Shown here piece by piece: positions 1-29,624 of a DNA stretch of 29,624 bases. The notes below the pieces were generated by a model. The model did no database searches and was not told the DNA's origin. It saw only the letters and a list, made by a program, of their open reading frames with translations. How positions within the stretch are numbered: the stretch's first letter is position 1; every line of letters begins with the position of its first letter. Source of the DNA: Trichoplax adhaerens (lineage: Eukaryota; Animalia; Placozoa); assembly GCF_000150275.1 (NCBI RefSeq), contig NW_002060943.1:8843233-8872856 (forward strand). The letters are read 5' to 3'. A program made the translations under genes and the position numbers.

Positions 1-1039
1 GGTGAATAGTATAAAATCCACTGGTTAAATGATAATATCAAGATTGAAACACTAATCTAGAACTCCAACGATTTGACAGCGACATGAACAAATGTACGTA
101 CAGTACTGTCCCCAAATTTTATTACAGTCGTTGTCGCCTGCTATCAATTAATGCGAGCAGCAGCAGCAGCATCAGTATCAGTCTCTATTGCGTCAGCAAT
201 GAATAGAAAGCTCTTAGTCTAACCTAATTGCAAAAGCACGAATTATGGAGAACGCAATATACGTCCATGACAGTAACATACTACTTGAATTTGGGATTAA
301 AAAAGAAAGCACCTTTTGTTTTACATGCATGCATTGTATTTCAGTGATATATCATAGCTCTCTTCACTTCATCATTAGGACATTGCAGCAAGAATGTTTT
401 TGCTATCGTACTATAAGCAATCCATGTAAAAAATAAAAAGCGAATACCCTCCATTCTATTATTAGGCTGTTGAGAAGCAGGAAATCGCTGACTCGCTCTA
501 TGCTATTTGGTAATTTCCATCAAGATATAAAAGCATAGCGAAAAATCAAACCGTAATACCGTTAATGCCAGTACTGGCATTTGTCTTAAACTAACAGTAA
601 ATACAATAACCTCCATGATTCAAAATAAGATCCTACGTGTCTTGATACATGTAAAGAATCGGATGCGGTCGCATCGTAATTGGAGTATAATACCGTCAAT
701 AATAACCAAATTGTACATATCGGTAACGGCATTGAAAATCTTCTTTAAAAAAAGAGTACTGTAACAAGCCAATTTTACTTTTACAGCTACAATTGTATCG
801 CTATTTCTGTGATACTAACCGCCAAGAATCAAAATCTTTGGTTTGTTGCAGTCTTGCATGGTAGACCAAGCTACTTTCAGAGTTGAATGTTAATTTCGAC
901 ACTGTTGTGTTAGGGCATAAACTGAACCGAGTTGGCGATATTTCGATTTGATTATTTTGAGCTTGATTTCTATTCAAACATGCTGTACAGTATGTAGAGT
1001 ACAAGTATCGAATTTTTCATATCAGATTCAGGGCCAAGC

Positions 1040-1465
1040 AAGAAGCATTGGACAAAACCACACGGGTTTAGTCTTTTCTCTAACATCAAGTCTACTGCAC
1101 AGTGCAGTACAGTACACAGTACAGTACAGTAAGTATTCTCGTTTTGGTATTCATCAGACAACCCACATGGGTTGTCTCTTTTCTCTAAAATCAAGTATAC
1201 AGTGCAGTACAGTAAGTATTCTCGTTTTGGTATTCATTTGACAACCCATGTGACTCTAAATCAAGTATACAGTGCAATACAGTAAGTATTCTCGTTTTGG
1301 ACAACCACATGAGTTTAGTCTCTTCTCTAAAATCAAGTATACAGTAAGACAGTAAGTACAGTATTCTCGTTTTGGTATTCAGTGGACAAAACACCCGGGT
1401 TTACCCTTTTCTCTAAAATGAAGTACAGTATTACTGCAGTGCACAGTAAGTATTCAGGGTGTAGA
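1040..1465. repeat. Tandem repeat of a ~73-bp unit, about 5 copies. Each unit carries ...acaacccacatgggtt..tctcttttctctaaaatcaagtatacagtgcagtacagtaagtattctcgttttggtattcat...
   Basis: Direct reading. Near-identical units start around 1061, 1150, 1225, 1295 and 1370, each ending in gtaagtattctcgttttgg. Confidence 0.8.
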
Positions 1466-1589
1466 AATTCGATCTAGATTTAAAAAAAACAGATAAAATG
1501 ATCAAAACTTTAAGCAGATATACAGTTTTATGGGTTTTATTCGAAAATAAATCATAAAAATATTCACTGACTTATCTAGAAAGAAATTC

Positions 1590-2070
1590 TACACCTTGTA
1601 AGTATTCTGGTTTTGGGCAAAATACATATAGTACATGTACTGTACAGTGTACAGTACGTAGGTTTAGTCTTTTCTCTAAAACAAGTACTGTACACTGTAC
1701 AGTACAGTACAGTATTCTGATTTGGGTATTCAGTGAAGTACTGTACTGTACTGTACAGTACAGTACGGAGAACTCTAGACATGTACTGTACAGTCCTGTA
1801 CTGGACGGTATACAGTACTGTACTACAAAGTGTACAGTACAGTACAGTACTGTACAGTAGGATCCTTTTCCAAACCGATAAATCAGCACCTACAGTACAG
1901 TACTGTATTTTAGTTAAGCCGGCATTTTGTTCCCAAATCCGCTCCATTTTTATATTTAACTTCATATTAAAGAATTGGACACCAAAAAGATCACGCTGTA
2001 CTATATGTACAGCAAGTGCACATCTTGTCATCGGCTTGCCTACAGTACAGTACAGTACATGGCTTGTGAT
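1590..2070. repeat. Degenerate (GTACA/TACAG)n pentanucleotide satellite, rich in perfect palindromes such as gtactgtacagtac
   Basis: Runs such as gtactgtactgtactgtacagtacagtac (1738-1768), tgtacagtacagtacagtactgtacagtag (1836-1862) and ctacagtacagtacagtac (2040-2058). The spurious six-frame ORFs here encode YSTVQ-type repeat peptides. Confidence 0.85.
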
Positions 2071-2409
2071 GCACTCAAGTTGGATGTGTTACTTTATATA
2101 ACACTAGTGCAAACTCCCGTCGCTTTGCTGACGGTTTACGATAATGTGCTCATTTAACAGATAGTATTACCATTTGATAGACCTGTCAGATTAAAATAAA
2201 ATTAATAGTACAGTATAATAAGATTAAATTGATGAGATGGGTCACGAGCGAAATATTTCAATCGATTGAAGAACTAGAATATCTTGCACTTCATTAGGTT
2301 AAGCACCTCAATATCGCGACGTATATTTAAGGGTAAATTCTAGCATTTAATGAAATACAGTATGAAGATTATATACGTACACTACGGGAATGTAATCATA
2401 CTTCTTGTA

Positions 2410-2600
2410 CTGTAATGATTAGTTCAATCACACTACCTACGGCAATTAGTGTGGACAAACGAATAGTGTAGGTTCCTAATTAGTGTTAACCACGTTAAAT
2501 ATGGTATTACCCAAAATGTGCTAACGACCCACACTAAATATGATATTACCAAAAATGTGCTAACTACCCACACTAACTGCCGTGCCCAGAGTCAGTGTTG
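2410..2600. repeat. Cluster of CACACTA / TAGTGTG heptamer motifs (at least 6 occurrences), including a ~41-bp direct repeat (about 2500-2581) and a small hairpin cacactacctacggcaattagtgtgg
   Basis: Read directly: ccacactaaatatgatattaccaaaaatgtgctaac occurs twice with minor changes. An inverted heptamer pair sits at 2419-2445. Confidence 0.6.
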
Positions 2601-3034
2601 GCTGATTTTAATACAACTATGCTACGAAAGTACCGATATTATCAAGTCGTTTTGCAAAATGGTTTCAACATTTGCAAATAATGAAACAAAATAAAGATTT
2701 TTCTAGCCTAATAGTAAATTGTCATTATTTAAGTTGTAATACATCAGTTTCAAGTAAAGCCTGCAGGACATACACCATTCGAAGAGCTTTATTTCGCATT
2801 CTGTGAGGGCTTAGTACGCAATTACTATTATCAGCTGATACATGCACTTAGCGCCAACTCACCACCAAGGTACAGAATTAACGTCGCTGCCACTTATAGC
2901 ATCTGCTACTTATTGTATTACACGAGTGTCCAGAGATATTCGAAGAATTTCAAATAAAGCAATTGAACTTCCAACTATTTACAACGGAATGTATCTTGCA
3001 TTCTATTGCAACTGCAATTGCAGCGATTAGAATT

Positions 3035-6974
<3,940 letters not shown>

Positions 6975-8119
6975 TTGAAAAATACTCTATACAATTGTAC
7001 ATGGTAACCATTTGTATTATGTAGCAGACTTATTTATTGCGTTTTTACGGTTATCAGGCTTGCTGCTGTATATTAGAGTGGTATGTTACAGTTTTAGTAA
7101 GGTGACAAAAACAGACATCAACAGGTTGTAGTAGTATTTATGCAATAGAACGACTAACAAATTTAATTGGATGAATAAATGAGGTATCTGTTATTAGTTT
7201 CCATGCATGTGGCTTTGTAACAGTATATCATTCTTTATGAAACGATGGCAACTGCAAAGTATGAAGCAGCAGAATCCGTAGGTCACATTCACTTACAATG
7301 CAATTCTAACTTTTATTCAGAATTAGGAGTAGTGTCGCATAGCCAAAAAAAAGTAGTACTAGGAAGTAGATCTAATTGTTTACGTGTATTAGAGGTCTGG
7401 TATTTGGGTTAAGCGACGACAAAGAGTTACTGGCATACGTACAATGTGTGTTGTTAACAACAATATGACATATACAGTACAGTAGTGTATGCTTGAATTC
7501 AGCGTCATCAAATAAAATTTAATTTAATATACTAGGAGTCAATATCGGTGGTATACCGTACACTATAGACTATCATCATTTGCATCATATCGATGTAAAT
7601 TTACAATGAACAACGCTGCAGTAAATATTCATGTGAGAATATTAGCTTGATCGAGGTAGCCCTCCCTTCAGGCTATACGCGTACTGTTCAGAAGCTGAGC
7701 TCTCTTTACTAAATGTTGCAGCTAAAATATCTTACACTGGATTGTGCCGAGTGCTAATTACATCCTGCTTGCTGTCTAGCTATAAGCTGGGGAAAAATGA
7801 TATCTATCTGCTTTAATACCACATTCTTATTGATTGACAGGTTAACTTGTAAATCCCTCTAGGCTGTCATTCACTTTGTATACTGCACTGAGTAGTTTTA
7901 TAAAATGGTTGGTTTGATAACTTAGCGATCTGCACTATACTGTACAGTTATTGCAGCATAGCAATTGCCAGTAAACAATGTGATCTCTTTGTTACACCAA
8001 GATTCTACGGCATACAGCTTTTTTATCGATACATCTGTAACAGCTCTGTTGTGTATTAAATAACGAACCTTCTGTCAGTGATGGACTTTCCACTTCATCC
8101 ATGCTGGCTTGTGATTTTG

Positions 8120-8175
8120 TGGGGGGGCTAGCATTTAGCATCTAGCATTTAGCAATAGCATTTAGCTTGCTAGAG
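8120..8175. repeat. G-tract (gtgggggggc) followed by a (TAGCATT)n-like tandem: gctagcatttagcatctagcatttagcaatagcatttagcttgctag
   Basis: Read directly. Confidence 0.7.
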
Positions 8176-8204: not shown

Positions 8205-8360
8205 AGAGTACAAGTACTTTACAGTACAATGTACTGTGAAGGTATACAGTACCAACCCGTACTGTACTGTACCGTACTTTGTATTGTAGACGTTATTACA
8301 GGCCCACTATCAATCTATTGTACTGTACAGTCTACTGTACTGTAATAGTACTGTAGTAAT
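8205..8360. repeat. (GTACA/TACAG)n palindromic satellite patch just upstream of the TEP1-like start
   Basis: gtacaagtactttacagtacaatgtactgtgaaggtatacagtacc...gtactgtactgtaccgtac...tgtactgtacagtctactgtactgtaatagtactgtag. Confidence 0.8.
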
Positions 8361-8563
8361 AATAACACTGGTGTGTGTCATTGAAATGACGTAATTTACT
8401 GAGAGTAAAGTGAAGTGAATTCATTACACTGACGCTTGCCGTCTGAGTGGTACTGTACGACTCGTATCAAGCGGTCGGTATCCACGCAACCTATCTGCTG
8501 TGTCGGCGATCAAAATAAGATGGACGTTCTTTTTCGCCTATGAAAATCTCAATATAACCAACT

Positions 8564-8717
8564 ATGTCTGAAAGTAAAGCGAATACTAGTGGAAGTTCAT
8601 TGACTGCTAATAGGAATCTGTTGAGTACAACTGGTGTTGGACTTGATAGCGGCAGTTCCACAGCATTATCGAGTAATCTATTGTCCACAAAGTCTACTCT
8701 ATTGACCACCGTTGAAG
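8564..8717 (+). CDS. TEP1: TEP1-like exon 1: MSESKANTSGSSLTANRNLLSTTGVGLDSGSSTALSSNLLSTKSTLLTTVE(A)
   Basis: This is the first in-frame ATG. Its 51 codons plus 1 nt phase correctly into the acceptor at 9027-9028 (ccatacag|cc). An untranslated upstream exon cannot be excluded. Confidence 0.6.
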
Positions 8718-11700
8718 GTACTGATTGAGATACGAGTTAATGGAACATGCAATACTTTCCATTTATCACATAGTATGTAGTTAGAAAGATACTAGACGAT
8801 CTTATGAAATAGTTGCTTTCTATCCATGATAAATAATAATTAAACAATGTATCCGTAATTCTTTATAACGAATATTTTAGAGATTACAACGTCTAATAGC
8901 ATCGTCTAGTAACGCCTTTGCGCTAGAGCTTATAAATAAAACAAGGATACCTTTGAAGTCTTGGATCCAACATCATAATAGGATAATGCAATAGACTGAT
9001 TGCTTGATTTTATTATATTTCCATACAGCCAGACAAAGTCGCCAAAATGCAGCTATGGCGAAATCACATCCAACACCGATGAGCAATCTGTATTCATTGG
9101 CTAATCCTAATCTTAAATTTACCAGTTTAGGTGGTACTCCACAAAGTATGCATGTATCCACGATCAGTTCAACCATGAAGGTAAATACTGAATTGAATAA
9201 ATTAACTCATCCTACACCTGCAGTTGCCAACTTATCACAGCAAAATAACTGGACCATGGGACAGTCAACTGCAGCGAAGAAAACTAATTTATTAAGCTCA
9301 AATATGAACAAGCGTCACTGTAGCGGTCACGCTTTAACCAACTATCAATTGCAACAAAGTACCAGTATTAAACCGAAAACGCTTAGGACTCTCTCCAGTA
9401 TAGATAATACTAAGAGCCAAATTGGTGATGTTACCATTGGGAAACAAGTTACCAATGATGATCAAATATTAAATGATCGATTAAGGTTATTATCTTCTCA
9501 TACAGTTCATACCTACTTATTATTAAGGATAGTGATAGATAATAAATGGTATAATACCTTAAATTGCGCCGTCAACATTATATTATGATATCAAATTAAT
9601 TTCTATAATATAAAAACAGTGATATTAAATATATATATATATATAAATATATTTATATTCTCTATCTTAAGCTAATTGGTAATGTCAGTACTACAGTAAT
9701 ATGATCGATTAAATGGTGTTGTTGTATTAGTTCAATGATGTACGTACACTTTAACCTATATTTAGGAAATCCAAAATTAATCAGTAAAATTACGGTCAAT
9801 GTGCATTGCTGCATATCGAAAATTTGGCCCAAAGTGATTATTTTATTTTTTACATTTTCATGCCTCCTTCGATAGCAACGTTGTCGACGAAGAAGAAATG
9901 ATTCCAACTCCGGAATACGATCTTAAGGATTGGAAAAGCACCTCTGAAGATGATTTTGACGCAGAGGATCATATGGAAAAGCTCTATGCACCACCCAAGA
10001 CTAGTTCAGATATTAGTAACTTGAAGGTTATATTCCCTTTTTATCGCTTAACCTTTGCTTACCGTTATAGAAATAAATCGCATGTCAGTCTACTACAGCA
10101 CAGCGTATGTCAATAATAAATAAATATACCAACACTATACTATACTGTATATAGCCATTAATATCAATTTTTTTTAATTTTCTAGAAATGCTTAATCAAC
10201 GCTGCTTCCTCGTCATTGATTGGCTCTCCTGATTTTAAAAGTAGAAAAGATTTCACCAGGCGGCAGCTGAAATTTTTAGCTAACAAAATCCAGATTTATG
10301 ACCCAGAATTCATTCTTAAAGTACGTCTTACATATATTGTATCCCTACTCAAACTGCTCTCTACCTATCAACTCAACTATTAATACACGCCATCGAATAT
10401 GTCCTATAATGACTGTTATACAACAGATCTAAAATGCGTAATATATTATTACATAATTTTGCTTAAATGCTATATTACAAAAATAATCTAAGGTCCTTTT
10501 TAAATTTCTTTGAAGGTTTCGTTGTATACACGCCAAGAGTTAGGAATACGTACTGCTGCTAATTTCTTATTGGCACTGGCAGCTAACATTCAAGCTTGTA
10601 GACCTTATCTGAAGAAATACTTTTCTACAATAATTAGACTACCATCGGACTGGATTGAAGTTGCCGAATTATACCAGGTACAATAATCTCGTATAATTAT
10701 GCGAAATATTATTTTCAGACTATTATACTGTACGTGCAATATTATGTTTTCTGATTTTTATCCGTAATAAATTTCTATTCTATTTTTAATCCTGGCCCTC
10801 TTGAAATTAGTCACTACATGATAAAACTATAAGGATAGGATCTTTACCTAAGGCTCTACGGAAGGTCATGGTAGATAAATTCGGTGGCTTTGACGAATAT
10901 CAGTTGGGTAATGCTATAGATTAGGATGTAGTAATATACAAAAATTCTCAGATAATATAATTGTAATATAACAGTACGCTTGTGTATATATTTGATAGCT
11001 AAATATAATAGACAAAAGAGAAAAAAATCAAGCCAGAATAAGAAAACGGATAAAACTTCACAGTTGGATCAAGCGGAATCAAATAATTACGCCTCAGAAT
11101 TCAACGATATTATTTTCAGTGATGACTCCGAAGACGAAGAAGAAACAGTTCAAATGATGTTTACCTTAAAACAGTTAATTCGAAAATTGCATATAATCCA
11201 GCCAGCTGAACATGTTATGGCATTAATTGGAAAAAAGTAATATATACAGTAGATTGCGAGCACATGTAACACTGTAGTAAAAGTAAATAATAGAATCAGT
11301 TTTACTGTTGTAAATTTTTTCTGTAACTACATAATAATCTGTGATACCTGTCCACTAGATATCCTGTAGACTTAGAAAGTTTTCATAAGAGTGGCTTGTC
11401 TGGTATTTGGAATTCGGTAAGACACTTTCTTATTCTTGTTAATTATGTAACATATAATATGCATAAATTACTTATTCATGAATATTACATATACACGTAA
11501 CAGGAACGAGCTAACAAGCGAATGAAATTACCAGTTCCTGAAACTTGGGAAACGCAGTTATCATTGCATGGTAATAAAGCTTCAACATGGGAAACTCTAA
11601 TTGGTAAGTCATTAAGATTAGCCACAGGACATATACGTTACCTTAGTTTACAGCATCTTTGCATAATATGACACTAATGGCATTCATGTTTAGTGCAATG

Positions 11701-14700
11701 CGTAATCACTTAGCAACACCTATGTGATCAATTTTGTGATTATTTTAGAGCACCAGAAGTTACCATTTATAGCCACTTTAAGGAATTTAAGAAATCTAAT
11801 TAAGGCTGGGATCAGCGACAAGCATCATAACCGGATTATTCGTAGACTTGAAAATGAAGTAAAGAGTATTTTATCCCCTTGTTTATATACAAATTATTCA
11901 CGAAATAACGGATTTCAATTAAAATAATGTTGATTGATACCTGATTGGTTAACTGATTAATTTTTAGAATTCAGTTATCAACAGCAAATTATTCCCTTTT
12001 CGTTTCTTTACGGCTTTTGAAGCTATCAATGGATATGAAAAGACGTCGCAAGGTATAGTTATTTACGTCCTCAAAATTTATCTACGATACTGAAATATCT
12101 AACGGCTGTTATCAGAGATATAAGTGTCTTTTGGGATAATGGTTCTTATTTATTCATATACATTTTTGTTGGCAAATATTTTGAAGCTGGAGAATCTGGT
12201 AATCGCTTTAACAGGAAGTTTAAAAAATCAAATACGAAAAAAAAGAAACAGGTTGAGATGTAAGTAGATGTTGGTAATCTGTTTAACTAGCATTGCTGAA
12301 TATGAATAAAAATTACTTTTTAACTTCACCTTTAGGCAAAAAACGGTTTCTGAAGCGCTTCTCAAACGATACAGGGAAGCATTAGATAATGCTGTAAAGG
12401 TAGCTACAAATCACAACGTTGCTCCTATTTGTGGCTCAACCCTCATTTTATGTAATGTTGCTGACGTGATGAAGATTCCTTGTACTGCAGCAAGAGGTCT
12501 TGGTAAACCTAGAACGGTAAATTTACCTTATCACGAATTCTTTAAGCTTCATCATAAGCGTTTACCAAATAGGTAATCTGCTTACCACTATGATTGCTGA
12601 TGAGATATCTGTACTTTATTAGTTGCTAGAAGTTGGCATTTTGTTAGGCTTAATGTTCAGATACTCCTGCGAACAGTCTGAATTCATCATTTATGCTGAT
12701 AACTGGAAAAAGATTGACGTATTCAACACTAATAGCATTCTTGAAAATACCGAGTCTATCTGCACGCTAGTTGAAGTTAGTGAATATCACACGTTCTTAT
12801 TTTAATACCCCTAACAGTATAATTGTATACAGCAATGATGTCGATATCTTTCTTTGATTTTACTACAAAGAAATCAATGATCACTACAAGTCCAAACGGA
12901 TTCCCTGAACAAGAAATGCTGAAATATCTTAAAGACCGAATTCAGGTGTTTAGCAAGCCATTCATAGTCTTTTTATAGATGAGCTATATTTATTTAATAC
13001 GCTGTCGTTTATTTTCAAACGATACTATTTGGCTATTGTAGCTTGACAACCTCATTCTCCTTTCGAATGGATCAAGCGAAGTGCCTAATCACAGCGTTAT
13101 GAATAGTTTTCTAACCAAATATAGAAGAGTAGTAAATCCGAATCTACTTTACGTTAATGTGAATTTAAGCGGAAAAGTAACTGGGTGAGTTATATATATT
13201 TAAATGCAGTCAGTATTGCAATCTTAATCATTAACATAATAATTCGATATATTCTTACTGTTTATAGATTTGATAGAAATAAGAAACTCAGCCATGAAAA
13301 TGATGTTTACGTTACTGGGTTTAGCGACCAAATCTTAAAGTTAGTACTTTATAGCCAATATTATTATACTAAAATTGAATTCCTTTGTTGATGTCAGTAC
13401 TTCCTGTTAATAAGTATACTGCTTACCATAATTATTATTCATACTACTAAATTTTTAAGTAAAGTCGAAACTTTTGATGCGTTTTCAGTCGTTCAGAAAT
13501 TACTTTGCATCTACAATAAAATATTATTTTTATTCATCATTATAAAAAGAAATAGCTTTATTATGTTGTATTTGTCTAAATTTATTATTTAGAAATATTT
13601 ACATCTGCTTTTTATACGTATACGTATTTTATAATAGATTTGTGGCTGATAGAGGAGGGGATGGACAGTTAATCAACGTGGAGAATATTGATAATGCTTA
13701 TAAACTGAAATCTATCAAGATACCTAATGTAATAGGGTTTTTAATGAATAAAAGTAGATCTGAAAAGCTCTCTTGCTAATGTAATATCATTATCTTATAA
13801 TTTGATCAGGCTATCTCAAGTGTTGATAAAAGTGAGGACAAATCGTATGGTATCGGAACTTTTGATATGTTTTTACCAAGGTCTTTAAAATCTGTCTTTA
13901 CGATAATTCTGCATTATCAGCTCCATAGATCATTCCCGAAACTACAACATTCTGATGTAAATTCCCTACATTTTTAGGTGGAAAACCGTTCGTGTTTTCA
14001 TATCATCTACGTTCTTAGATATGCATGGTGAAAGAGATATTTTAACAAGGTATGTTTTTCCGGAGTTACGCGCAAGATGCCAGCGTCATTTTCTGAATAT
14101 TTTTGAAGTGGACCTTCGTTGGGGTATCAACGAAGCTGACATACAACATAATAGGTAAAATTTAAATACAAGCGTTATAATAAATATAGTAGTAGCAAAT
14201 TAAAAGATAGTATACAAATACTGAATTAATTCATCAATTTTTGTTTACAGTATGCTCGAATTATGTTTAACTGAAGTCCAACGAAGTGATTATTTTATTG
14301 CTATACTTGGTCAACGATATGGTTGGTGCCCTAAAGAGTATGAAGTTCCACCAACTAGCGAATTTGATTGGGTAAGAAACTATCCGCCAAATAGGTCGGT
14401 GACCGAGCTAGAAATCCAACAAGCTATATTCAATAACCCATCCGAAGCAATTCGAAAATGCTTTTGTTATATCAGAGATAACACTTTTGAGAGGTAAGCA
14501 GATAATGAAATGTTTTATCAATTTATGATCTCTGCTTATGTTACAAACGATAAACTCTTACACATCGTCGCAATATCGATCTTAGATTTCTGTTCTTAAT
14601 TAACTGGATCTAATATAGTTTTTCATTTTTCCGTTCTAAGTGATATACCTAAGAACTGGCTATTACAATTTGTCGATGATTCTGATATTGCAAAGGAGAA

Positions 14701-24689: not shown

Positions 24690-27600
24690 CTAGAGAAAGG
24701 CATACACAACTTATTAATATACAGTATAGTCATCCATGCAATCTTCAGGGTTGTTAAAATACTAGATTCACTCTTGCTTCAATCTTAAACTTGCCTGCTT
24801 CAATCTAAATTGTGATGCAAACCGTCCAGCAGTATTTCTGATTAAGCTACCAAAGGAAAAGAAACTGCCGCCATACCTTTAACAAAATGTACAAATTTTA
24901 GTCATAATTATAAACATTCCCTTGATTCGAATACTAGTAAACATCATATAATGTATAAGATTTTACGTTTTCCTAATATATGCCCAATTAGCACGAACGA
25001 AGTCCCATGCGAGAGGCCTGCCAACCAAGTTATTGGCAATGTAACCAATAACAACAGTAGAATCTTGGGAACGAACTTTAGCAGGATCAATGGACCACCT
25101 TAAGTACCTACAAACAGTTCAATAATTTTTTGAATGTTTAGTGTACGAGAATTAAGTTAATTAATCATTGCAATTGGTAAATCCATCATCAGAAGTCACA
25201 ATGTACCTATTCAGAATCCACGGTTCCTTTGAATATGACAAAGCATCTAATATAGTTCGTTTTTCGGAAGCGACATTCGTTTTATAGAAGTAATTATACA
25301 GGAAATCCCACTCTGCGATACCTCCATTAGCTATACCAAAACGGTATACAACCGCCTTCAAGTTCGGTTTTACGCTAATGTTGAATAGACGATTGATCTC
25401 ACTATCCCCGCTTTGCAAAAAGTCACCTTGACTATGCAAGTATTCTGTATTTCCAGGTAAAATTAAATATCAACATTAACTTACGCATTATTTGTGGGGT
25501 CCGCCATAAAGCGACGGAAAAGCAAAGTTGCATTATCTAAACATGGCTTGTATCCAAATCCACAACCAATAGTTAAGGCCGACATACGCAATAATCTGAT
25601 TAAATTTGATGGCTTATATCAATTATTGAAATTATGGTAATTTTATAATTTTAAGGTAGTAATTAGTATGTTCAGTTTTTAAAGCTTACTATTAATACAT
25701 AATTATAGTAAAAAGTTAAAAATACTCACTTCTGAGTATGACTCCCTTTGTCTTCAAAGCCAATCGTGTCCAATAAAGGCTTTAATTGCTTCAAGTAATA
25801 TTGCTAAATAATAGGGTATATAAATAAAAGCTCATAATAAGCTTATCACATTCATAATGTGAGATTATTTTATTATAGTTGTATAATTAAATATATGCGT
25901 CTAAGTATACATATCTGTCATTTACACTAACCGAAAAGTAACCGTAGGATGAACGATATGATATGATGGATCCAATAGCGCCAAGTACAGAGTTTGCAGT
26001 CCTCCAAGGAACATAGCTTCTTTCTTTCGTAAGATACTTTGTTGTGCCAAATGCGATGTCGAGTACTTGGAGACTTCAAGGGTTCATTATAATTATCGAT
26101 CAGTCCCTTATTACCTTGCAAGATTAAAAGCGTCATCAAGTAGATTGGAGAAATCTCTTTTTGATAATGCCTGTCACGCATACGGAAAGCAACGATCAGT
26201 ATTTCATGAATATTTCAATACGTTATAAGCACATATGTCAAACACTATAAAATCAATCAACATTTTTTAAATGCACGCCATCATTATTGGAAAAACTTAC
26301 CGGTTGTGTTTTCTGCATTTCCTGGATGAGGAGATTCCAATTACTTACTGGATAGTTAACTCGGTAATAGCCATAAGCATCTTTGTTGGCCTTCAGCCAA
26401 GTACCAGCTGGCCAAGCTATATTGAGAGCTATTTAGGAATTTAAAATTACATAATTACCAAACTTGTTGTAAAGTACAAAATACTCACACACAACATTAG
26501 ATTTTAGATCGCTACAGTACTTGCAAAATACTTTTAATCTATCTAACTATTTATAATCCACATATGCATGAACGTAGCTTACTGGAACTCATGTTAACCA
26601 TTGCACTTCGAATTGTGTTCGGCGAATTTCCAAGAATGTATTTAAGCGGGATATTCCACTTGTATCTATTAATTTAAAGCAATTAGCCAAGTCTAGCTTT
26701 CTGATAAGCTTACGCGGATCAAATTTTATTCATCTTTAATAAATGTAATTAGAGATACTACTAATAATAAATAAATATTATCATACCCATAGGGTGACCT
26801 GAATTTTGAGGTTGCTGGATCAACCTCGGGATTTTTATTATTGGGATCCAACAAGAAACGTTTTTGTGAGAGTCGAGCTTGAGAACCTGTATTCGTGATA
26901 GTAACGACAGGAAATCCCATTTGCAGTGTCCAAGTATCCATAACATCAGTAACATTTATCCTGTAAGAAATGGCCTTAAATGTTGCCATAATAATTCGAT
27001 CAATGATGTGCTACGGGCAATTAACTACAGAACTTTATGATAGTGCTTGTAAATCATTAATATACATATCCGATTAAATTTTACCTCCGATAAAGTTTGC
27101 CAAAGATCTCGAGTTACAGCATTCCGATATTCGAATTTTTTTAAGTATCTCTACATTTAAGAAAAGTAAACGTACGATAAAGAGATAATCTAAAAACTTT
27201 TAAGCCATCAATGTGCAATCAGTTTTAGAATATATGTCATACCGAAATGCCATTCTTGAAATCCAAATTACCCATCATATCTCTCATCATTCTAATGATC
27301 GATGCACCCTACATTATAATTAAAAGATTACTTACTAACTTCTATTACAGTACCAACGTTTCAAAAAAATTAAAATATCCACAATTCAAAAATAGGTTTC
27401 AAAGAGAACAGACCTTCGCGTAAGAAATTGTGTCGAAAACTTCATTAATTTCGTCGGGATGATAAACAGTAACTTGGACAGGATGTGAAGTTACAAATGC
27501 ATCCAAAGAGAAGGCGCGCTGTACGTCGATAGGTACAAATTGATCGAGCTATTCAAACAAAGAGCACAACAATTGTAAATTTTTAGCAATATAAAACTAT

Positions 27601-29103
27601 AGGGAAATCACGTATTATCTATCCACTGTGGTGATCATCATTCTCTAATTATTGGGGAAATTTAAAATTATGTATTACCATTTCCCATGTAGGTTGATAA
27701 TGATCAGTGCCGAGATATTCCATGAAACTAGCAAAGCCTTCGTTAAGCCAAAGATCATCCCACCACTTCATAGTGACTAAATTACCAAACCACTACATGT
27801 TCAAATAGAAATTGAATAACTTAGTTCACAACAAGAGAGTAACGTAGGAGCTCATATCAATAATTTTTATTAACCATATGAGCCAATTCATGAGCCACTA
27901 CATAAGCAACACGTTGCTGATTGTTAGCTGCAGAGACATTTGGATCATATAATAAAGCAGTTTCGCGATAGAGAATTAAACCCCAATTTTCCATGGCCCC
28001 AGCAGCAAAGTCAGGAACTGCTACCATGTCTATTAGTTATTAAGGTGGCGATAGGTATCAAGCGATTAGCAAAGCAAGAATAATGAAATGTATCAAACAG
28101 CAAACTAATTACCGCATTATCAAGCATTACCTTGTTTCGGCAATGGGAAAGGAATACCGAAAAAATCTTCGAAGTAATCAGTTATATTAACACCACCAAT
28201 TAAAGCGAAATTGCCCTGATTGATAGTATCGGTAGTTGCCCAAACCCTTATCTAGATCCAATTTTAGTAAAATTTAGCTCCGCTGAGAAATTTTTAATTA
28301 ATTTTAAATTGTATAAACAGGCAACATGAAACATAAAGCTGTTTACTATTTATGTTAACATACCGGTACTCTGTTTTTGGTCATCATTTCGATGTAAGTA
28401 AAATCGGCTAACACAAATGCAAGTAAGTACGAACTCATCCTAACACTGGCTGTAATAAATTGAAATATCGATCGTTAAGTACAGTTTCTATTTTAACAAT
28501 AATAAAACAACGTATGCAAAGACTGAAATTTAATTACCAGGCTACATCAATGGTCAATGTATCAAGGTGACAATACAACCTGCAAAGTCTTTCTTTGTAC
28601 TGTACTACGCTAGATATGAAGTATCGTTCACTAAACTTACTGTTGTAGTCATATCTTCTAAAACCAGGGCGATTAGGTATTGTAACATTTCTTTGAATTG
28701 GCATATTCCATAGAACGCTCGTATAATTTGATTGAGTAATGATTGTTGCTGTAAAATTGGCCTTCAATTCAGGCTCATCAAAGAGAGGTATAATCTTACG
28801 TGCGTCAGTTGGTTGACATTGGCTAGCTGCGATATTTCTAAATTGGAAAAAATAACATTGCATAAAATTTTAGAAATGCAACAAATTTACTTCACAATTG
28901 TTAGGATTTACAGCAACACATTGACGTAACGATTGCTTCCCCCTCAATTTTTTTTTGAATTCCGTCATTTCGATACTCGATTAACAAATTTAAAGTAACC
29001 TATCGTGCCGTTCGCATTCGCAACCCTACCCATCAAATACGACATAAGTAATTTCCCCTGCTTTAAAATAAACTCCATATCTAAAAATGAAGAGCCGCTT
29101 GTG
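24546..29103 (-). CDS. Gene span of an M1-family zinc aminopeptidase (aminopeptidase N / ERAP / PSA-like). It is multi-exon. The 5' exons were not found and are probably beyond 29103 or off-window.
   Basis: GAMEN and HEXXH-X18-E motifs. The exons are collinear with ERAP1/APN from the FYRS.Y...ARK..PCFDEP region through the C-terminal ERAP1_C-like domain to the stop. Confidence 0.9.
24795..24876 (-). CDS. Aminopeptidase exon: (T)[27 protein letters not shown], followed by a GC-AG intron
   Basis: Matches ERAP1 ELGSSSIAHMVMGTTNQFSTRTRLEEV. The only frame-preserving donor is gcaagt (GC at 24794-24793 on the minus strand). Confidence 0.7.
27679..27792 (-). CDS. Aminopeptidase exon: [38 protein letters not shown]
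   Basis: Carries the third zinc ligand, Glu in LNEGFA, exactly 18 residues after HELAH. It is 38 codons, in phase 0. Confidence 0.9.
27875..28029 (-). CDS. Aminopeptidase catalytic exon: [52 protein letters not shown]
   Basis: GAMEN exopeptidase motif and HEXXH zinc-binding motif. Both are hallmarks of gluzincin M1 aminopeptidases. Confidence 0.95.
28364..28449 (-). CDS. Aminopeptidase exon: (T)[28 protein letters not shown]
   Basis: Matches the conserved MSTYLLAFIVSEFDYVE block of M1 enzymes. Confidence 0.85.
28641..28826 (-). CDS. Aminopeptidase exon: (A)[61 protein letters not shown]
   Basis: Matches TQFEPTdARkaFPCFDEPa.KAtF.itl, the S1 pocket region of M1 peptidases. Confidence 0.85.
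29000..29103 (-). CDS. Aminopeptidase exon: (x)[34 protein letters not shown](A). This is the most upstream exon I can identify.
   Basis: Collinear with PSA/ERAP tGtL.idF.Ge..dkmkGFYRS.Y region. About 100-150 N-terminal residues must lie further upstream. Confidence 0.6.
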
Positions 29104-29149
29104 CTACAATAATGATCACAACATTTGTTTTGGCACATGGCACTACGAC

Positions 29150-29560
29150 TGGTGTTGACAACGCTAAACCGTAGTACAGTACAGTATAGTGAATTATTTA
29201 CAGTACAGTACTTTGCGCGATTGTAATTTCGAAACTGGCCAATCAAATTCAGCTTCCAATTTACGTCACAGAGAGGCTGATTTGATAGATTGTTATTCCG
29301 TCGAGGACACGTTTCCTGTGGTCATGTAACCAGCATTCGGTGCGCACTTTTTAGAGCTCCAGTAGTAGGAAAAGGATTACAGCACGGTACTGTACACTGA
29401 GTGTACAGTACGGGCCTCATTTTAGAGCTCCAGTAGTACAGTACAGTACTGTACAATCATAGACTACTACAGTACAGTACTATATGTACAAAAAACACTG
29501 TAGACTGTAGTCCATGGTACTGTACTGTACAGTACAGTACAGTACTGTAAAAAAGACTTC
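29150..29560. repeat. (GTACA/TACAG)n palindromic satellite block with an embedded ~70-bp higher-order unit. The 19-mer ttttagagctccagtagta occurs at 29349 and 29420.
   Basis: tgtactgtacagtacagtacagtactgtaaaaaa (29521-29554) and many shorter runs, read directly. Confidence 0.85.
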
Positions 29561-29624
29561 TCCGATAGGGCAATACGGTACAGTGGAAAACTCTCTTTAA
29601 AATGAGAGTCTGGTGAATCAGCCG

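Follow-up and report, generated by a model that had tools for sequence, protein, structure and literature searches.

Genes and repeat zones of the window

The stretch of Trichoplax adhaerens DNA that was analysed (29,624 bp, hereafter the window) has a G+C content of about 33% and a compact gene layout. A PRMT3-like gene on the minus strand (ATG near 8102) and the TEP1 gene on the plus strand (ATG at 8564) have divergent start codons, and an aminopeptidase gene is encoded on the minus strand near the right end. The gene called TEP1-like in the earlier note is that of telomerase-associated protein 1 and not of a thioester protein, with a DUF4062 domain in the window and TROVE and Beta-prop_TEP1_C domains in the orthologous contigs described below. 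No convincing open reading frames were found in 1-3800, and no RNA gene accounting for the repeats in this part was detected (no Rfam or tRNA match in the whole window).

The 8-mers of (ACAGT)n, counted on either strand, numbered 205 in the window, whereas 100 dinucleotide-preserving shuffles gave 5.6 on average and at most 17, and the 24-mer GTACWGTACWGTACWGTACWGTAC was matched five times in the window and not once in the 100 shuffles. The pentanucleotide motif is thus present, far above chance, at the places where the earlier note had reported it. With diagnostic 8-mers, (GTACA)n and its reverse complement (GTACT)n were located in three non-coding zones, 985-2059, 8205-8458 and 29173-29549, within which the density of GTAC was 13 times higher than outside. 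The first zone had been given as 1590-2070; the motif is there, but the true left edge lies further left, at 985. The term satellite, used for these zones previously, wrongly implies continuity, since the arrays consist of many short runs of 2-6 units with degenerate or unrelated sequence between them, and the diagnostic 8-mers cover 571 bp, or 1.9% of the window. The number, length, orientation and spacing of the arrays are irregular. Small patches that had been noticed in introns do exist at 7473-7486 and 28597-28608 but are merely 2 to 2.5 units long. The features are as follows.

985-1455, zone 1a: all arrays in ACAGT orientation on the plus strand (8-mers, self-alignment)
1046-1156, 1157-1240, 1241-1300, 1301-1385, 1386-1455: five tandem higher-order units of zone 1a, one ACAGT core each (alignment)
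1116-1131, plus strand: perfect ACAGT run in zone 1a, a row of the table of Wang et al. 2010
1456-1597: MITE-like insertion, 25-nt imperfect terminal inverted repeats, 84% complementary
1598-2059, zone 1b: about nine short (GTACW)n arrays of mixed orientation, the centre of the earlier note
1636-1706: inverted repeat, arms 1636-1657 and 1685-1706 (22 nt, 100% complementary), 27-nt spacer, -28.5 kcal/mol, z -8.8
1697-1714, 1738-1756, 1832-1850, 2041-2059: perfect runs in zone 1b, in the published table
1743-1766: 24-nt perfect palindrome GTACTGTACTGTACAGTACAGTAC, where the fifth base of the unit changes from T to A, predicted hairpin of -12 kcal/mol (z -4.5)
7473-7486: small patch, 2.5 units long, within non-coding sequence of the PRMT3-like gene region
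8205-8458, zone 2: mostly ACTGT orientation, arrays 8214-8244, 8259-8278, 8319-8355, 8451-8458
28597-28608: small patch of two units in the intron that immediately follows the Peptidase_M1_N exon, 32 bp past the minus-strand splice donor GTAAGT
29173-29549, zone 3: mixed orientation, arrays 29173-29211, 29376-29411, 29435-29484, 29504-29549
29435-29449, 29527-29545: perfect runs in zone 3, in the published table
29517-29540: second copy of the 24-nt palindrome, hairpin -11.9 kcal/mol, z -4.0

Identity of the repeat family

The repeat family and its gene association are already known. Wang, Zhang, Meyer and Bao (2010, Biol Direct 5:18, PMC2871265) described ACAGT as the dominant microsatellite of T. 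adhaerens, concentrated near gene starts, with 5,624 loci (78% of all pentanucleotide repeats), of which 54% lie no more than 1 kb, and 85% no more than 5 kb, upstream of a gene. The second pentanucleotide has 302 loci, which gives a ratio of about 19 to 1. Translation (ribosomal-protein), protein modification and kinase genes were enriched among the associated genes, and the authors already considered that a transcription factor might bind the repeat. Their catalogue holds perfect runs of at least 15 bp only, with both orientations pooled, and the gene association was tested without a random or intergenic control (PMC2871265).

A perfect tandem ACAGT/ACTGT run of more than 12 bp, in practice at least three units, defines the family (Wang et al. 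2010), and the window contains seven such runs of 15-19 bp and four of 14 bp. The first and last positions of the seven runs of at least 15 bp are those of seven successive entries in Additional file 5 of Wang et al., from scaffold_1 8844348-8844363 through 8872759-8872777, once a single offset of 8,843,232 is applied, which places the window at scaffold_1:8,843,233-8,872,856 of T. adhaerens. On run length and catalogued position, therefore, these loci had been catalogued before, and it is virtually certain that the arrays seen here belong to the ACAGT family listed in that table. The distances given there from the listed arrays to the gene 5' end are 3.07-4.78 kb, on the upstream side. Zone 2 does not appear in the table because no perfect run in it reaches 15 bp. 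As a discovery, the observation repeats published work: the repeat is real and striking, and had already been described. Added here are the GTAC-based unit, the palindromic A/T switches, the higher-order repeat, the lack of shared flanks, the turnover at two loci and the occurrence of long arrays in metagenome contigs.

Repeat unit, higher-order repeat and palindromes

In the three zones, 39 of the 76 GTAC-to-GTAC gaps were exactly 5 bp, and the base 3' of GTAC was A in 45 cases, T in 28, G in 4 and C in 2, so that the fifth base of the unit is A or T in 92% of units. Random substitution of A is not expected to give a pattern in which T far exceeds G; the most suitable description of the unit is the 4-bp palindrome GTAC with A or T as a fifth base, written here as GTACW.

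The arrays of zone 1 are embedded in a higher-order repeat (1046-1735) with units of 60-110 bp, each having an ACAGT core. Alignment of the five units in zone 1a showed conserved flanks and cores that differ in length. The fifth unit is split by the MITE-like insertion, on either side of which stands a copy of a 10-bp direct duplication, GTAAGTATTC (1446-1455 and 1598-1607), and the higher-order unit continues past the insertion in 1598-1735. The insertion is not a member of the repeat family, and its termini carry no GTAC arrays. Zone 3 has a direct repeat of 19 bp, TTTTAGAGCTCCAGTAGTA, present in two copies 71 bp apart.

The sequence GTACTGTACAGTAC is a perfect reverse-complement palindrome, as the earlier note had it, and longer ones exist too. 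Inside the arrays there are two perfect palindromes of 24 nt and eight more of 12-14 nt, and the window as a whole contains 34 of at least 12 nt (mean 13, maximum 23 in shuffles). Inverted repeats with arms of about 10 bp or more and a short spacer were found at 1743-1766, 29517-29540 and 1636-1706. In the last of these an irregular GTGTAC/GTACAC unit is common to both arms, which points to a duplication in inverted orientation and not to slippage at two places independently. Each of the three arrays of at least 24 bp in the window has one palindrome-making A/T switch (TTTAA, AAAT, TTAAA), as compared with 25 of 215 metagenome arrays of at least 24 bp (Fisher p = 0.002), the comparison being one of three arrays with a set of mixed, unknown origin. 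Arrays with a strand switch were predicted to fold into stems of about 8-13 bp with energies of -5.8 to -12 kcal/mol (z -3.4 to -4.5), whereas single-orientation arrays, namely all of zone 1a and 8255-8282 in zone 2, folded no better than shuffles. The cruciform potential ascribed to the arrays is thus real in those with a switch and in the 22-nt arms (-28.5 kcal/mol), but it is modest.

Position relative to genes

Zone 2 occupies the roughly 420-bp gap between the divergent start codons of the PRMT3-like and TEP1 genes and lies within 360 bp of both. Zone 3 is placed 310-690 bp 5' of the first recognisable aminopeptidase exon. No N-terminal aminopeptidase exons were recognisable in 28864-29624, and zone 3 was therefore treated as probably intronic; it is likely to be located in a 5' intron, given the inferred 5' end of JGI gene 20166 about 700 bp beyond the end of the window. 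Zone 1, the largest cluster, has its nearest annotated 5' end 3.0-4.0 kb away. It is located downstream of the PRMT3-like gene's 3' end, with zone 1a starting about 2.4 kb past the last recognisable exon of that gene. The suggestion of a dispersed promoter-proximal repeat accordingly fits zones 2 and 3 and the 54% and 85% of Wang et al., but not zone 1.

Comparison with a relative and with metagenomes

Contigs from Logan (SRR30664516, SRR30664517, SRR30660616) and ENA (ERZ27263980) were found to be collinear with 8564-19891 and 22542-28846 of the window at 60-69% nucleotide identity. From the collinear alignment through introns at this identity, we infer that they come from a divergent placozoan. 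Arrays were compared at two loci of this one relative, for which the available sequence 5' of the genes was 317 bp and 1,017 bp long. The relative has one motif 8-mer in front of the TEP1 ATG, compared with 18 in the window, and three in front of the aminopeptidase exon, compared with 53. In a global alignment of the upstream regions only the coding starts aligned, and the non-coding sequence was too diverged to place the arrays. Conservation of the arrays at orthologous positions, as would be expected for an insulator, was not seen at these two loci in this relative. Such near absence at two orthologous loci indicates that the arrays probably turn over fast between placozoans. The protein search yielded no PRMT3-like orthologue for the other side of the divergent promoter, and an exact-sequence look-up of two window ORFs returned no record for either.

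Arrays of (GTACW)n with at least five units were also present in more than 120 metagenome contigs, which are unrelated. The description of the repeat as genome-specific can thus be kept for its abundance but not for exclusivity. A JGI contig of 2,993 bp with a weak TEP1 match (P0002) was considered as a candidate for a metagenome locus of the same length with ACAGT arrays (L004), and was rejected since its peptide is not encoded in L004.

Origin and possible function of the arrays

The explanation we favour, and regard as moderately probable, is that these are mutation-driven ACAGT microsatellite arrays with a GTAC + W unit that are tolerated beside genes. Replication slippage would lengthen and shorten the arrays, as suggested by the general behaviour of microsatellites and by the variable cores of zone 1a. 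Since GTAC is self-complementary, one strand of an array can fold back on itself, and hairpin-templated strand switching or inverted duplication could then turn runs of GTACA into GTACT, producing perfect palindromes and inverted array pairs. This hairpin or inversion step is partly shown and seems quite likely, on the basis of the switches in all three long arrays, the 22-nt inverted repeat and the better folding of switch arrays. The arrays would arise and persist mainly in non-coding DNA beside genes, with fast turnover. Given this turnover and the tolerance of non-coding DNA, any regulatory effect would more likely be collective and weak, marking gene starts, keeping them open or insulating them, than specific to single arrays. 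The excess of one pentanucleotide by about 19 to 1 speaks against the mutation-driven view; it is hard to obtain by slippage alone and calls for a motif-specific mutational bias, which is what we propose, or selection. The enrichment of translation and protein-modification genes and the change of predicted contacts upon motif insertion in a Micro-C model would fit a real function. Loss of individual arrays is compatible with function combined with turnover of binding sites.

An insulator or promoter role is plausible. The arrays could be cis-regulatory or architectural elements bound by a predicted GTAC-binding placozoan protein, probably a dimer, that gives insulation or promoter contacts, a possibility that we take as the first rival but as less likely than not. 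The Chimaera network, trained on T. adhaerens Micro-C data, recovered repeating ACAGT de novo, and in-silico insertion of the motifs found was significant and altered the predicted contact maps (Nucleic Acids Res 2026, PMC12817080). The shares of ACAGT loci within 1 and 5 kb upstream (54% and 85%) exceed a Poisson expectation of about 10% and 43%, which is our own rough estimate from 11,500 genes in 104 Mb (figures from PMC2871265). Ribosomal-protein and kinase genes are enriched near ACAGT, and the loop-forming GP1 genes of Kim et al. are housekeeping and translation genes as well (PMC12221973). Zone 2 exactly fills a divergent promoter, and the preference for A or T as the fifth base would suit a binding site. 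However, the literature searched contains no binding protein or experiment for ACAGT, the network may have picked up something correlated with gene starts, which the same paper reports as insulating in T. adhaerens, and neither the journal nor the preprint text of the Chimaera paper states which contact pattern (insulation, fountain or loop) is tied to ACAGT (PMC12817080). An insulator-like role is only suggested by the model. The uncontrolled gene association of Wang et al., the loss of arrays at the two loci of the relative, the distance of zone 1 from any annotated 5' end and the irregularity of the arrays also weigh against it. More doubtful still is a combined version, in which (GTACW)n arrays and especially their palindromic switch points would be the platform of a putative architectural protein setting promoter insulation or hub contacts, with sites made and lost by hairpin-driven mutation.

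The remaining explanations fare much worse. A derivation of the arrays from a mobile element, as its remnants or internal repeats, for example from the Mutator family with loop-anchor terminal inverted repeats, with dispersal by transposition, is very unlikely. Zone 1 does hold the MITE-like insertion, whose target duplication of 10 bp has a length typical of Mutator-like elements, and the higher-order repeat of zone 1a is of a kind carried by some non-autonomous elements. Mutator insertions occur at about one third of placozoan promoters, their terminal repeats carrying a loop-anchor motif that is conserved across four species of placozoans (Kim et al. 2025, Nature 642:1097, PMC12221973), and ACCGT/ACGGT, one CpG transition from ACAGT, is the fifth commonest pentanucleotide (PMC2871265). 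Yet the zones, once their microsatellites were masked, shared no sequence (the best cross-zone match in a short-word BLAST was a 13-mer, E = 0.14), and the remnant of a mobile element suggested by the earlier note was therefore rejected for the window. At the edges of the three zones there are neither terminal inverted repeats nor target duplications, and the repeat is broken up by the MITE-like element, not carried on it. The CpG variants GTACGG and CCGTAC occur three times each in the window, too few to support decay from ACGGT. The transposon motif is given in the Chimaera paper as repeating ACGG, distinct there from ACAGT (PMC12817080), and the ACGG repeats ACGGACGG and CCGTCCGT, a proxy based on this later description of the loop-anchor motif, are absent from the window. 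The transposable-element content of the genome is reported as 0.13% (PMC2871265). It is similarly hard to credit that the functional feature is the DNA structure itself, with cruciforms formed under transcription-driven negative supercoiling being recognised or excluding nucleosomes. The excess of palindromes, the 24-nt ones occurring twice, and predicted hairpins of up to -12 kcal/mol together with the spaced inverted repeat, all better than shuffles, would fit, but arms of 12-13 bp are barely long enough for a cruciform to extrude, many arrays have a single orientation and fold no better than shuffles, and A/T switching in a repeat built on GTAC accounts in full for the palindromes as a by-product. 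An action in RNA has the least to recommend it and is extremely improbable. The ACTGT orientation would be transcribed as (UGUAC)n, a cluster of UGUA, which is the CFIm polyadenylation-enhancer motif, and mixed-orientation arrays between genes, dense in UGUA, could help to terminate read-through from both sides in a compact genome. TGTA is present in every ACTGT unit, the zones lie between genes, and zone 1 is downstream of the 3' end of the PRMT3-like gene, zone 1a being ACTGT on the strand of that gene; but zone 1a is some 2.4 kb away from the last exon, zones 2 and 3 are at 5' ends, and ACAGT is rare in ESTs (14 loci, PMC2871265).

Placozoan genomes are very compact and nearly free of transposons; no CTCF-type system has been described in them, and their promoter-promoter contacts number in the thousands (PMC12221973). 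One pentanucleotide that makes up 78% of its class and lies beside gene starts is an obvious candidate for part of the sequence code of this architecture. The GTAC unit, the palindromic switch points, the lack of transposon flanks and the rapid turnover turn the description into concrete hypotheses, which can be addressed with Micro-C and ATAC data that are publicly available and with the published genomes of four placozoans.

Comparison with known systems

Hairpin-forming microsatellites (CAG/CTG, CGG) and the correction of quasipalindromes by template switching (Ripley-type mutations) are known processes. They share with (GTACW)n a self-complementarity that allows intrastrand pairing and is expected to favour slippage and to perfect imperfect palindromes; the pattern in the window is a T-run followed by an A-run. 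The known cases differ in being trinucleotides or unique quasipalindromes with measured mutation spectra.

The ACAGT repeats of Wang et al. and the arrays of the window share genome, motif and loci, seven arrays being rows of the table. The 2010 table omits zone 2 and most short arrays, the words palindrome and hairpin do not occur in the paper, and zone clustering, the higher-order unit and a cross-species comparison are given only here. The Chimaera motif is the same in the same species and ties the repeat to three-dimensional chromatin, matching the insulator-like idea, but the result is in silico, without loci, protein or experiment. The motif of the Mutator terminal repeats resembles the arrays in being a short repeated motif near placozoan genes; it is found at housekeeping promoters as a proposed site of an architectural protein (PMC12221973). 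It differs in lying within transposon terminal repeats, in being described in the Chimaera paper as repeating ACGG and in being conserved in four species, while the ACAGT arrays have no such termini and no ACGG and were not kept at two loci. The function proposed for the arrays would be analogous to that of CTCF, BEAF-32 or M1BP sites in other animals, and if the hairpin-renewed platform were true, it would represent a self-renewing insulator code in an animal without CTCF.

Repeat unit and extent of the arrays

Numerous short GTACA runs, together with GTACT runs as their reverse complement, were present at 1590-2070. When (ACAGT)n-diagnostic 8-mers were counted on both strands of the whole window, 205 were found, whereas dinucleotide-preserving shuffles averaged 5.6 and never exceeded 17, and a 24-base (GTACW) pattern, W being A or T, matched five times in the window and not at all in the shuffles. 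The motif was clustered in three non-coding zones, with two trivial patches elsewhere.

985-2059, zone 1
8205-8458, zone 2
29173-29549, zone 3
7473-7486, two-unit patch
28597-28608, two-unit patch

The earlier note had described a GTACA/TACAG repeat at such loci, and this was confirmed; its extent for the first locus, 1590-2070, was too small. GTAC density in the zones was 13 times that in the rest of the window, half of the GTAC-to-GTAC gaps within zones were exactly 5 bp, and the base 3' of GTAC was A in 45 cases, T in 28, G in 4 and C in 2. The repeat unit consists of GTAC and a fifth base, A or T, and what looks like a "strand switch" is therefore this base changing between A and T.

Relation to the published ACAGT family

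ACAGT dominates the microsatellites of the placozoan Trichoplax adhaerens, its 5,624 loci making up 78% of all pentanucleotide repeats (the runner-up motif has 302); the 1-kb stretches upstream of genes hold 54% of the loci and the 5-kb stretches 85%, a role as a transcription-factor binding site was suggested, and every locus was tabulated in Additional file 5 (Wang et al. 2010, Biol Direct 5:18, PMC2871265). All seven perfect runs of at least 15 bp in the window matched rows of that file with a single offset of 8,843,232. The window is therefore scaffold_1:8,843,233-8,872,856 and its arrays had already been catalogued, so that their membership of the published family is essentially certain.

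Perfect runs in the window and their scaffold_1 positions in Additional file 5
1116-1131, 8844348-8844363
1697-1714, 8844929-8844946
1738-1756, 8844970-8844988
1832-1850, 8845064-8845082
2041-2059, 8845273-8845291
29435-29449, 8872667-8872681
29527-29545, 8872759-8872777

The literature search found one further publication on the repeat, Chimaera (NAR 2026, PMC12817080), a network trained on the Micro-C data of Kim et al., whose de novo motif search in T. adhaerens returned "repeating motifs ACGG and ACAGT", ACGG being ascribed to a transposon. The feature is thus striking and was correctly observed, and it has been known since 2010. The words palindrome and hairpin do not occur in the text of Wang et al. 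(2010, PMC2871265), and the array anatomy (unit, switches, inverted repeat, folding, higher-order units and MITE-like insertion) had not been described before. These additions are small and lead toward a genome-wide test, not to a discovery.

Palindromes, higher-order units and a MITE-like insertion

Each array of at least 19 bp carried one A/T switch (TTTAA, AAAT, AAT or TTAAA), and this makes perfect palindromes.

1743-1766 and 29517-29540, identical 24-mer perfect palindromes, GTACTGTACTGTACAGTACAGTAC
1842 and 29441, 14-mer perfect palindromes
1636-1657 / 1685-1706, inverted repeat with 22-nt perfect arms
1456-1597, MITE-like insertion of 142 bp

An irregular GTGTAC unit common to both arms of the inverted repeat indicates an inverted duplication and not two independent expansions. 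As single-stranded DNA, the switch-containing arrays formed hairpins of -5.8 to -12 kcal/mol (z -3.4 to -4.5) and the spaced inverted repeat reached -28.5 kcal/mol (z -8.8), whereas pure arrays had no folding advantage over shuffles. The cruciform potential proposed earlier is real, though limited in extent: it was seen for switch arrays and the inverted repeat, and not for pure arrays. Outside the array zones, an 18-nt perfect palindrome with AGTACT at its centre (AATGCCAGTACTGGCATT) was seen at 564-581.

A minisatellite of five or six tandem units of 60-110 bp, with no copies elsewhere in the window, occupied 1046-1735. Its unit (approximately GACAACCACATGGGTTTAGTCTTTTCTCTAAAATCAAGTA-[ACAGT core]-AGTATTCTCGTTTTGGTATTCA) had conserved flanks and ACAGT cores of varying length. 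The MITE-like element splits this higher-order array; it had 25-nt imperfect terminal inverted repeats (CAGGGTGTAGAAATTCGATCTAGAT / ATCTAGAAAGAAATTCTACACCTTG) and was surrounded by a 10-bp target-site duplication, GTAAGTATTC, at 1446-1455 and 1598-1607. Target duplications of 10 bp are typical of Mutator-like elements. A single MITE family, of about 20 copies, has been reported for the T. adhaerens genome (Wang et al. 2010, PMC2871265). In zone 3, an exact 19-bp direct repeat (TTTTAGAGCTCCAGTAGTA; 29349-29367 and 29420-29438, 71 bp apart) ran into a GTAC array at each copy, a hint that zone 3 too may have a local higher-order unit resembling that of zone 1. To the right of zone 1, a 39-bp sequence is tandemly duplicated in the intergenic stretch 2496-2576 (2.1 copies that are 92% identical).

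Genes around the zones

Genes were mapped from Pfam matches and ORFs.

about 3800-8100, minus strand, PRMT3-like gene (PRMT_C, C2H2 finger)
8564-23200, plus strand, telomerase-associated protein 1 (TEP1; DUF4062 in the window)
about 25100-28863 and beyond, minus strand, M1 aminopeptidase

A thioester protein was ruled out as the identity of the "TEP1-like" gene by DUF4062 and by TROVE and Beta-prop_TEP1_C, found on L125 and L122, the orthologous contigs in a relative. The gene's 5' part contained an (AT)15 run at 9629-9658.

The earlier note had placed the repeat next to gene 5' ends. This held for zone 2, which occupies the ~420-bp gap between divergent start codons at ~8102 (minus, PRMT3-like) and 8564 (plus, TEP1, confirmed by alignment to the relative), and for zone 3, which lies on the 5' side of the first aminopeptidase exon that could be recognised, 310-690 bp from it. 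It did not hold for zone 1, which lies between genes on the downstream side of the PRMT3-like gene; the gene assigned to it by Wang et al. (PMC2871265) has its 5' end 3.07-4.00 kb away, and no RNA genes or convincing ORFs were found near the zone. The aminopeptidase exon covers only positions 116-165 of Peptidase_M1_N, no earlier exon was recognisable as far as the window end, and the published table implies that JGI gene 20166 begins ~700 bp past that end. On this basis zone 3 is probably within a 5' intron. Adjoining zone 2, TAGCATT is repeated in tandem (7/14-bp unit, 5.6 copies; 8129-8166) where the PRMT3-like gene presumably has its 5' end.

The motif in a relative and in metagenome contigs

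Protein searches of ENA (ERZ27263980) and Logan (SRR30664516, SRR30664517, SRR30660616) assemblies gave ORFs 81-86% identical to window exons. Their contigs were collinear with the window across exons and introns, at 60-69% nucleotide identity overall, and kept the convergent TEP1/aminopeptidase arrangement; judged from these alignments, their source must be a divergent placozoan.

Collinear contigs of the relative (window positions, nucleotide identity)
L125, 8564-19891, 60-65%
L122, 22542-28846, 65-67%
L001, 13034-16702, 69-79% (the 79% being reached in short blocks of conserved sequence)

The 317 bp upstream of the TEP1 start codon held one motif 8-mer in the relative against 18 in the window, and upstream of the aminopeptidase exon there were 3 in 1,017 bp against 53 in 761 bp. 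The relative was mildly enriched overall (14 in L125, 1.6 expected), and no array with more than two GTACs occurred in its contigs. The arrays at these two loci are therefore lineage-specific, with fast turnover.

The repeat had also been called genome-specific; in the sense of being exclusive to Trichoplax this did not hold, as five consecutive GTACW units were found in at least 120 JGI metagenome contigs. Among the matches listed, most had long single-orientation arrays and a G+C content of 35-63%, and many came from a few sample series (Ga01233xx, Ga0136643, Ga0131853, JGI20163-JGI24700). Many (e.g. L068, L049, L120, L033) carried 10 or more such arrays per 1-2 kb, so some other organism also has an ACAGT-rich satellite. 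In contig L091 the arrays had a periodicity of ~57 bp and their A/T patterns recurred (e.g. TAAATTAA, present in two copies), and L103 (10.4 kb, 34% G+C) had them at both ends. Among arrays of at least 24 bp picked by the same W-tolerant pattern, a switch was borne by 3/3 in the window and by 25/215 in the metagenome contigs among the matches listed (Fisher p = 0.002, with small n). The speciality of Trichoplax is the dominance of the motif and possibly also the mixed orientation of its arrays.

Origin and possible function

A mutation-driven repeat is the favoured mechanism. Replication-type slippage would change array length; the self-complementary GTAC core could fold back, plausibly promoting expansion and, via template switching or inverted duplication, producing the T-run/A-run palindromes and inverted pairs; and arrays would persist where harmless, in non-coding DNA adjoining genes. 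By calculation from ~11,500 genes and 104 Mb (Wang et al. 2010, PMC2871265), a random position is expected to fall in the 1 kb upstream of a gene in ~10% of cases and in the 5 kb in ~43%, and a random intergenic position would be nearer still. The upstream bias of ACAGT is real, if smaller than a first reading of the published figures suggests; these were given with no random or intergenic control (PMC2871265).

The arrays had alternatively been read as remnants of a mobile element. In a short-word comparison of the zones with each other, made after masking the microsatellite, a single 13-mer (E = 0.14) was the sole similarity between zones, all significant matches being internal to zone 1; no terminal repeats or target duplications bracketed any zone, and ACGG repeats were absent from the window. 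This reading is not supported for the window, and a transposon origin of the arrays is very improbable. The window showed no CpG depletion (779 CG seen, where base composition predicts ~838). This fits little or no CpG methylation and speaks against an origin of ACAGT from ACGGT by CpG decay. It is equally hard to credit a cruciform-dependent function or an action of the arrays at the RNA level (UGUA), each having only a slim chance of being right. That a dedicated protein binds the arrays and gives them an insulator or promoter role is possible, if rather unlikely, and is given this weight because a purely neutral view is opposed by the 19-fold excess of ACAGT over any other pentanucleotide, by GO enrichment of ACAGT-associated genes and by the recovery of ACAGT by the Chimaera network (PMC12817080). 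Placozoans have thousands of promoter-promoter loops with a loop-anchor motif within Mutator terminal repeats, tying this superfamily to their promoters (Kim et al. 2025, Nature, PMC12221973). The promoter-proximal, insulator-like reading of the earlier note is a guess that mirrors published suggestions.
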